Virus record (IMG/VR): IMGVR_UViG_2541047938_000008
Coordinates: 1 to 41,587 of that record
Origin: a virus
Taxonomy: Duplodnaviria; Heunggongvirae; Uroviricota; Caudoviricetes
Direction: 5' to 3' (one strand)
Length of the DNA: 41,587 bases
The position numbers and the translations under genes were made by a program. Each line of letters begins with the position of its first letter. Within the stretch, counting starts at the first letter, position 1. Shown here one piece after another: positions 2,403 to 2,783 of the stretch. The notes under the pieces were generated by a model. It made no database searches. It had not been told where the DNA came from and saw only the letters and a program-made list of their open reading frames with translations.

Positions 2403-2783
2403 TTATATCGCCGGGTTATCGTCATCGGTGGCCCGGTTAATCAGGTGCGTCAAAATCCCCTTCACATCCACCTCATTAAGAACCTCACCTTCCAGAACTT
2501 CACCATCTACCGTTATCAGCGCATCACCTCTGCGCCTGGCAAAGTGACAGCCACCTGAGTACGAAATCAGGTAGGTGCTATCTGGTGATGGCTTCATTCC
2601 CTTTTCTATCACAGCAAACCCATGCGATGTCTCAATCACCAGGCTGTTAGCCGTGACGCCGCAGATAGTCTCTATGGTTAGCGTGCGTTCAATGTAGTCT
2701 TTAGCTGGACTTGGGAATCCCATGATGACCTCCGATAGATGCTGTATATTAATACAGTAATACCGATCGGCGTTGTCGATCAA
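2403..2783 (-). CDS. UmuD-like (LexA/UmuD S24 family) protein, apparently degenerate
   Basis: GFPSPAKDYIE motif as in the UmuD N-terminal tail; GDALITVDGEV and DVKGILTHL align to the UmuD C-terminus; nucleophile position reads SGGCH instead of SGDSM; no Lys at the general-base position. Confidence 0.4.
   Translation of the reverse strand: MIDNADRYYCINIQHLSEVIMGFPSPAKDYIERTLTIETICGVTANSLVIETSHGFAVIEKGMKPSPDSTYLISYSGGCHFARRRGDALITVDGEVLEGEVLNEVDVKGILTHLINRATDDDNPAI

Follow-up and report, generated by a model that had tools for sequence, protein, structure and literature searches.

A small gene behind a LexA box in the yfdC-argW-intS locus

The DNA analysed here is the viral sequence record IMGVR_UViG_2541047938_000008, a stretch of 41,587 nucleotides that we refer to as the window, and in which the Escherichia coli yfdC-argW-intS locus is occupied by a P22-like prophage. 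Between intS and the gtr genes lies a minus-strand open reading frame (ORF), which a preliminary description had taken for a degenerate UmuD-like gene without a umuC partner, either a decaying pseudogene or a non-catalytic protein. The ORF is present as described, at 2403..2783 and with 126 amino acids (aa) counted from a TTG codon, and a search of the 41.6-kb window found no umuC. We call the gene short humD; it is convergent with intS and divergent from the gtrA-gtrB-GtrII-type transferase block (2836..5530), and 112 bp of intergenic DNA separate it from gtrA (Table 1).

The 381-nt extent first assigned to the ORF is too long. Its TTG is a mechanical start situated in the promoter, such that the first 20 codons are promoter sequence, and translation credibly begins instead at the ATG at 2723, because it is preceded by GGAGG, because PHROG 3469 matches ORF residues 21-125, and because homologues of about 106 aa begin with MGFPSP, as all of the full-length ones do. 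The resulting 106-aa translation, MGFPSPAKDYIERTLTIETICGVTANSLVIETSHGFAVIEKGMKPSPDSTYLISYSGGCHFARRRGDALITVDGEVLEGEVLNEVDVKGILTHLINRATDDDNPAI, is strongly acidic, with 16 Asp/Glu compared to 9 Lys/Arg.

A LexA box, TACTGTATTAATATACAGCA, had been overlooked immediately upstream of this start codon. It fits the full pattern TACTGTAT-N4-ATACAG and is the sole match to it in the window at two mismatches or fewer, where 0.18 would be expected by chance. A perfect CTGT-N8-ACAG is found no more than 450 nt upstream of the family gene in 143 of 161 related loci, and a LexA site is annotated at the same position for humD of phage P1. Other promoter elements are less distinct: the putative −35 hexamer is based on 'CTTGATCGAC', which is conserved in two related loci (L001 and L003), a weak −10 candidate (TACTGT or TATTAC) overlaps the LexA box, and a sigma-70 consensus scan of the region returned no strong promoter at its thresholds. 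In vivo, short humD is probably regulated by LexA within the SOS response, to judge from the position and conservation of the box.

The divergent region between short humD and gtrA also holds two GATC sites (2765-2768 and 2778-2781), one of which overlaps the putative −35, and the GATC block and LexA box are ~79% identical in BTP1-type Salmonella phages. In P22-like phages the gtr operons are phase-variable through Dam and OxyR, and the divergent promoters of short humD and gtr may be coupled.

Table 1. Features of the window around short humD
Feature	Coordinates	Strand	Details and basis
Short HumD/UmuD'-like coding sequence	2403..2723	-	ATG 2723-2721, stop 2405-2403; 106 aa plus stop; translation, PHROG 3469, homologue lengths, dN/dS
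Shine-Dalgarno GGAGG	2729..2733	-	5 nt before ATG; read from sequence
LexA (SOS) box TACTGTATTAATATACAGCA	2740..2759	-	CTGT-N8-ACAG core 2742-2757; 20-mer ends 17 nt upstream of ATG
Putative −35 hexamer TTGATC	2778..2783	-	Doubles as mechanical TTG of the 126-aa ORF; overlaps a GATC site; inferred from sequence
tRNA-Arg(CCU) argW, prophage attachment site beside yfdC	1009..1083	+	ARAGORN; E. coli annotation
Prophage integrase IntS	1209..2402	+	Pfam Phage_integrase, Phage_int_M, Arm-DNA-bind_3; annotated intS in E. coli genomes
gtrA	2836-3198	+	ORF list; GtrA annotation in related locus L001
gtrB	3195-4112	+	ORF list; family-2 glycosyltransferase annotation in related locus L001
GtrII-type glucosyltransferase	4109-5530	+	Pfam Glucos_trans_II

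Relationship of the protein to UmuD and HumD

The similarity to UmuD is well beyond chance and the earlier assignment stands. ORF residues 21-125 match positions 1-105 of the 106 in PHROG 3469 ('UmuD-like protein'; E 8.7e-42, 142 bits), a profile of the family aligns residues 2-96 with residues 25-136 of UmuD in the PDB (8gmt_B; E 3e-6), and when hhalign compares the family with UmuD, HumD and the UmuD of Phytobacter, the probability is 98.4% and E is 4.1e-15 across 105 columns. Foldseek searches with a model of the protein return S24 domains as the only top matches, with template-modelling (TM) scores of 0.57-0.61 to UmuD, and the S24-type beta fold is homologous to the C-terminal domains of UmuD' and LexA. 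P1 HumD aligns end to end with the window protein by blastp, including the C-terminal tail, in which HumD FGVITHVIN...DDCPVI pairs with KGILTHLIN...DDNPAI and which is absent from UmuD. The N-terminal GFPSPAKDY motif is present, as is a C-terminal block in which VDVKGILTHLI aligns with UmuD LDVFGVVIHVV, and the deletion of about 20 residues proposed earlier is close to what we measure, the core being ~17 residues shorter than in UmuD' and 23 shorter than in HumD. On these comparisons the window protein is a true UmuD/HumD homologue, and HumD is its closest relative.

The Peptidase_S24 profile (PF00717), which the preliminary description had proposed as a check and whose silence it would formally have counted as a refutation, finds no match in the window protein at E≤10, five homologues gave no Pfam match at E≤0.1, and precomputed Pfam annotation is empty for all 37 homologue matches; S24 homology is established instead by the profile-profile and fold comparisons. 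The NCBIfam UmuD model scores 20 bits against a cutoff of 110, matching just the 25-residue arm, and a PADLOC scan gave no match.

Loss of the catalytic dyad and a start at the cleavage-site glycine

The window protein carries SGGCH, which had been read as UmuD SGDSM with cysteine in place of the catalytic serine. This is a misalignment. We compared three independent and mutually consistent alignments (MAFFT, profile-to-sequence and profile-to-profile), and in all three the UmuD loop ASGDSMIDGGI that holds Ser60 is deleted and SGGCH pairs with UmuD 90-VDGEF-94; GFAVIE pairs with the UmuD strand DLLIVD, and SGGCHFARR with VDGEFTVKK. The alignment gap is bridged by divergent members of the family in which HPSAT...VD is still present, and the predicted strand order fits the alignment with the Ser loop deleted. 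A single-sequence phmmer search against the PDB had put UmuD Ser60 opposite Ala37, a placement overruled by the concordant profile, profile-profile and MAFFT alignments and by the strand order. UmuD Lys97 pairs with Ala62, in a column that reads A108, G21 and V8 among 137 distinct family proteins and A41, G13 and V10 in a pattern-independent set. With the Ser60 loop deleted and Lys97 replaced there is no Ser/Lys dyad, as had been suspected, and Ser/Lys autopeptidase activity is impossible.

The visual match between SGGCH and SGDSM is also what would speak for an active peptidase, or autopeptidase, using Cys59 as its nucleophile in place of serine. Cys59, however, pairs with UmuD Phe94 and not with Ser60, its column is variable across the 137 proteins (N43, T40, L19, I10), no general base is present, and there is neither a pro-peptide nor a cleavage site in a protein that starts at the P1' glycine. 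We regard the probability of such an activity as negligible.

The position of that start had escaped notice. The window protein begins Met-Gly at UmuD Gly25, the cleavage-site glycine, with no N-terminal segment left to cleave, and it therefore corresponds to a pre-processed form like P1 HumD. The arm that follows, MGFPSPAKDY, is conserved in the family (G2 in 127, F3 in 129, S5 in 130, A7 in 130 and D9 in 127 of 137 proteins). Methionine aminopeptidase removes Met before Gly, and we infer from the sequence that the initiator Met would be lost, leaving the mature protein with the same N-terminus as UmuD'.

Conservation and distribution of the short humD family

We assembled 161 loci, comprising the window, annotated phages, 80 IMG/VR loci and 74 GTDB species, and 150 of them contain an intact ORF of 95-112 aa, together specifying the 137 distinct proteins. 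Within the clade of the window protein (88-96% aa identity), synonymous divergence (dS) reaches 0.25-0.64 and the ratio of nonsynonymous to synonymous divergence (dN/dS) is 0.06-0.20; family length is conserved down to 27-35% identity, and start codon, tail and LexA box are conserved across related loci. The family is compact, with 278 clusters (50% identity) at E≤1e-3 among 1.84 billion representatives, and the species matches all fall in Enterobacteriaceae or Erwiniaceae, two unplaced or misbinned assemblies excepted. It is also present on 40-95 kb non-mobilizable 'plasmids', and it is rare in E. coli, with 8 occurrences in 5426 complete genomes.

This rarity, the missing catalytic residues and the shortened domain would be expected of a decaying pseudogene of a umuD or humD gene, and a true humD pseudogene, with an in-frame stop, does occupy the same slot behind the same promoter in BTP1-type Salmonella phages. 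The short humD ORF is nonetheless intact and follows a good Shine-Dalgarno sequence, it is maintained at 95-112 aa in 150 of 161 loci across two bacterial families, and its dN/dS stays at 0.06-0.20 with dS up to 0.64, with length kept at low identity. We exclude decay as an explanation on these grounds, and judge it highly improbable.

The BTP1-type gene is itself worth describing. In phages BTP1 and vB_ST415_1NRH a full-length humD-like gene (2185-2544, minus strand, of loci L002 and L003) lies behind the same LexA-box promoter, is 62% identical to P1 HumD over 100 aa, and is interrupted by the in-frame stop; the BTP1 record leaves this gene without annotation, and that of vB_ST415_1NRH gives it in pieces labelled 'UmuD' and 'DNA polymerase'. 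These loci were candidate orthologues of the short gene in a phage DNA search, but the match covered the promoter and first codons only, and we rejected them.

Two family proteins are composite. P0050 (141 aa) joins a UmuD-type pro-peptide with a Cys-Gly cleavage site to a protease-dead domain of the short type, and P0079 (187 aa) is a fusion of short humD with orf79, a gene described below; both could be recombinants, or artefacts of assembly or frameshift.

Gene contexts across the family

Family genes are found in several arrangements. In 74 loci, including the window, the LexA box is followed directly by the gene. In 81 others a gene of 79-80 aa, orf79 (PHROG 3893, mislabelled 'DNA polymerase V'), lies between the LexA box and the family gene, and in mEp390 and Eeyore the first stop codon and the second start codon overlap in TGATG, which couples the two genes. 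A model of Orf79 (predicted local distance difference test score, pLDDT, 81) resembles small winged-helix proteins.

One candidate function is that the S24-like domain serves for oligomerisation or partner binding, and that short HumD is a transcription-factor partner, forming with Orf79 a LexA-like pair split in two genes, or a LexA-controlled antirepressor docking on the S24 C-terminal domain of the C2-like phage repressor. The second-best structural match is the non-catalytic S24-like C-terminal domain of the 186 CI protein, and the phage repressor of the window carries an S24 domain. However, a search for orf79 in the window did not find it, and 74 loci have the family gene alone; the repressor of the window, a canonical cleavable protein with helix-turn-helix and Peptidase_S24 domains (Pfam), needs no antirepressor; the family is spread over phages with unrelated immunity regions; and its UmuD-specific arm and umuC linkage point to DNA polymerase V (Pol V), not to repressors. 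We therefore consider this role improbable.

The umuC linkage is seen in six of the 161 loci. An arm-less family member occupies the place of umuD, behind a LexA box and directly upstream of a umuC homologue with IMS, IMS_C and DUF4113 domains, in CobraSix, two Enterobacter genomes and Franconibacter. In Phytobacter ursingii (L144, 1955-3956) the operon consists of a LexA box, umuD (140 aa, with the Cys-Gly site and GDSM), umuC and then, 24 nt downstream, an arm-less short-family gene of 95 aa. In a Kosakonia sp. locus (L142) an arm-less family gene likewise follows umuC, on a contig that ends inside umuC, such that the umuD region is not visible. A dinI gene lies within 4 kb in 26 loci, often diverging from a shared LexA box, for example in mEp390 and Eeyore. 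Judged by gene order, the umuC and dinI linkages tie the short humD family to Pol V and RecA* biology.

Proposed function of short HumD

Taken together, the alignments, the selection data and the LexA box make it very probable that short humD is a functional, SOS-boxed and protease-dead homologue of HumD and UmuD'. The protein is best explained as a minimised S24-fold protein of the UmuD' type that is synthesised from the outset in the form left by cleavage. Pol V is UmuC as activated by UmuD'2, and uncleaved UmuD delays it. Upon DNA damage, inactivation of LexA would lead to transcription of short humD, and the product would need no RecA*-mediated processing; its target would be the host Pol V (UmuC, with RecA*), on which it would act by binding rather than catalysis. 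It would most likely serve as a ready-made UmuD' surrogate or manager that allows UmuC-dependent lesion bypass on damaged, induced phage DNA without the delay of cleavage. P1 HumD is the precedent for such a role: a note in the P1 record states that HumD complements UmuD'. We infer both the binding of UmuC and the sign of the effect, activation and not restraint, and we propose the surrogate mechanism tentatively; the full statement, of a functional, LexA-repressed and non-catalytic short HumD acting as a UmuD' surrogate or manager for host UmuC, we advance with moderate confidence.

Several observations weigh against it. Just residues 1-25 of the NCBIfam HumD profile (NF051876) match, at 26.4 bits against a cutoff of 120, and the Pfam S24 model is silent, as described above. 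UmuD' has nothing that corresponds to ITxDGEAIEG, the block that the family conserves most strongly. Deletion of the Ser loop and shortening of the 98-123 region remove part of the UmuD' surface. UmuD contacts RecA* through residues including Y52, V54, D91, E93 and F94, and through F26 and P29 of the arm (PMC9926225), and the five globular contact residues are not conserved in the family. All six umuC-linked relatives lack the GFPSP arm and are 39-41% identical to the window protein, and their context may not transfer to it. The Phytobacter gene coexists with a complete, cleavable umuD, and a third regulatory component fits there as well as a surrogate does. Roughly half of the family genes share a transcript with orf79, a winged-helix gene with no known part in Pol V biology. 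Finally, no experimental or analytical study of the family emerged from a literature search on UmuD-like, HumD and UmuD-homologue phage proteins.

Some of the same observations favour the opposite sign. Short HumD could be a negative modulator or decoy comparable to DinI, holding back Pol V mutagenesis or adjusting how RecA* stimulates the cleavage of UmuD, LexA or the phage repressor, either as a heterodimer with host UmuD or UmuD' or by occupying the groove of the RecA* filament with its arm and the acidic DGEAIEG loop. The RecA-contacting arm residues F26 and P29 are nearly invariant (F3 in 129 and P6 in 127 of 137 proteins), the protein is strongly acidic, its best-conserved block is an acidic loop without a UmuD' equivalent, dinI is frequently paired divergently at a shared LexA box, and the Phytobacter gene coexists with intact umuD-umuC. 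Regulators encoded within Pol V-like operons also exist, ImpC being an example. On the other hand, HumD, the closest characterised relative, is an activator according to its record, CobraSix-type operons have a family member as the only UmuD-like gene before umuC, and the globular RecA-contact residues of UmuD are not conserved. We consider restraint possible but doubtful, and it is the foremost of the competing explanations.

An account that combines several of these elements would have short HumD as an SOS-timed, protease-dead S24 'decoy' and no polymerase subunit, whose arm and ITxDGEAIEG loop dock on RecA* or on S24-domain proteins (UmuD, LexA or the phage repressor), with Orf79 as its partner in half of the loci in a split LexA-like pair, and through which the prophage controls when mutagenesis, or its own induction, takes place. 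This account is unlikely.

Surroundings of the gene in the window

The intS stop codon (2400-2402, plus strand) abuts the stop codon of short humD (2403-2405, minus strand), and a terminator scan predicted none between the two genes at its thresholds. SOS-induced read-through from short humD would run antisense to int, and several IMG/VR loci likewise have a convergent integrase (L014, L017, L018 and L023 among them). The slot between intS and gtrA is a variable cargo site; in E. coli 2017.01.04CC it holds an unrelated gene for a hypothetical protein of 335 aa (L164, 5078-6085). Elsewhere in the prophage, just past the tailspike region, is an IS21-family element (8384-10686, plus strand) with istA at 8384-9925 (rve and Mu-transposase C-terminal domains) and istB at 9937-10686, and given this element the P22-like prophage of the window may be defective.

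Meaning and comparison with known systems

The family has not gone unremarked, as databases label it 'UmuD-like' and the mEp390 annotation notes a similarity to HumD. Pre-processed phage analogues of UmuD' have been known since P1 HumD, and short HumD is best described as a new, minimised and protease-dead form of the HumD/UmuD' kind and not as something categorically new. It shows what remains once the autoprotease has been discarded, namely the arm, the C-terminal strand and tail, and a new acidic loop, under LexA control, and so offers a natural dissection of the UmuD' surfaces needed for non-proteolytic 'manager' functions. Host SOS mutagenesis could also be altered by many temperate phages of Escherichia, Klebsiella, Enterobacter and Erwinia, and this would matter for how often damage and antibiotics induce mutations in lysogens. 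The annotation labels 'S24/S26 family peptidase' and 'DNA polymerase V' are misleading on such small ORFs.

Among known systems, P1 HumD and N15 gp26 are the most similar. Like short HumD, they start with MGFPSPAxDY at the UmuD cleavage-site glycine, have a LexA box just upstream and no adjacent umuC, and align end to end through a shared strand and tail, FGV(I/L)TH(V/L)IN...DDxP(V/A)I, that UmuD lacks. P1 HumD differs in having 129 aa and a full-length S24 core, with the Ser60 and Lys97 positions kept (DSH and RIK), whereas the window protein has 106 aa, a deleted Ser loop, Ala in place of Lys and its own ITxDGEAIEG block, and scores 26 bits against the HumD cutoff of 120. UmuD' of E. coli shares the N-terminal arm motif, the C-terminal strand and SOS regulation, the last predicted for short HumD. 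As the subunit of Pol V (UmuD'2C), however, it arises by autoproteolysis of a 139-aa precursor through Ser60 and Lys97 and is encoded with umuC; short HumD is made directly, with no dyad, a core ~17 residues shorter, a C-terminal DDDNPAI tail and no umuC.

The 186 CI protein is not known to be cleaved through RecA. Its C-terminal domain has a non-catalytic S24-like fold, but it is part of a DNA-binding repressor, lacks a UmuD-type arm and has no detectable sequence relationship to short HumD. DinI and ImpC are small modulators of RecA* that are SOS-induced and encoded on phages and plasmids. Their genes, like short humD, are accessory genes at prophage ends under LexA control, which is predicted in the case of short humD, and they differ in that their products are unrelated to short HumD in fold and sequence. 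DinI is acidic, as is short HumD, it binds the RecA filament (PMC9926225), and dinI is the divergent neighbour of the short humD family in mEp390, Eeyore and other loci.
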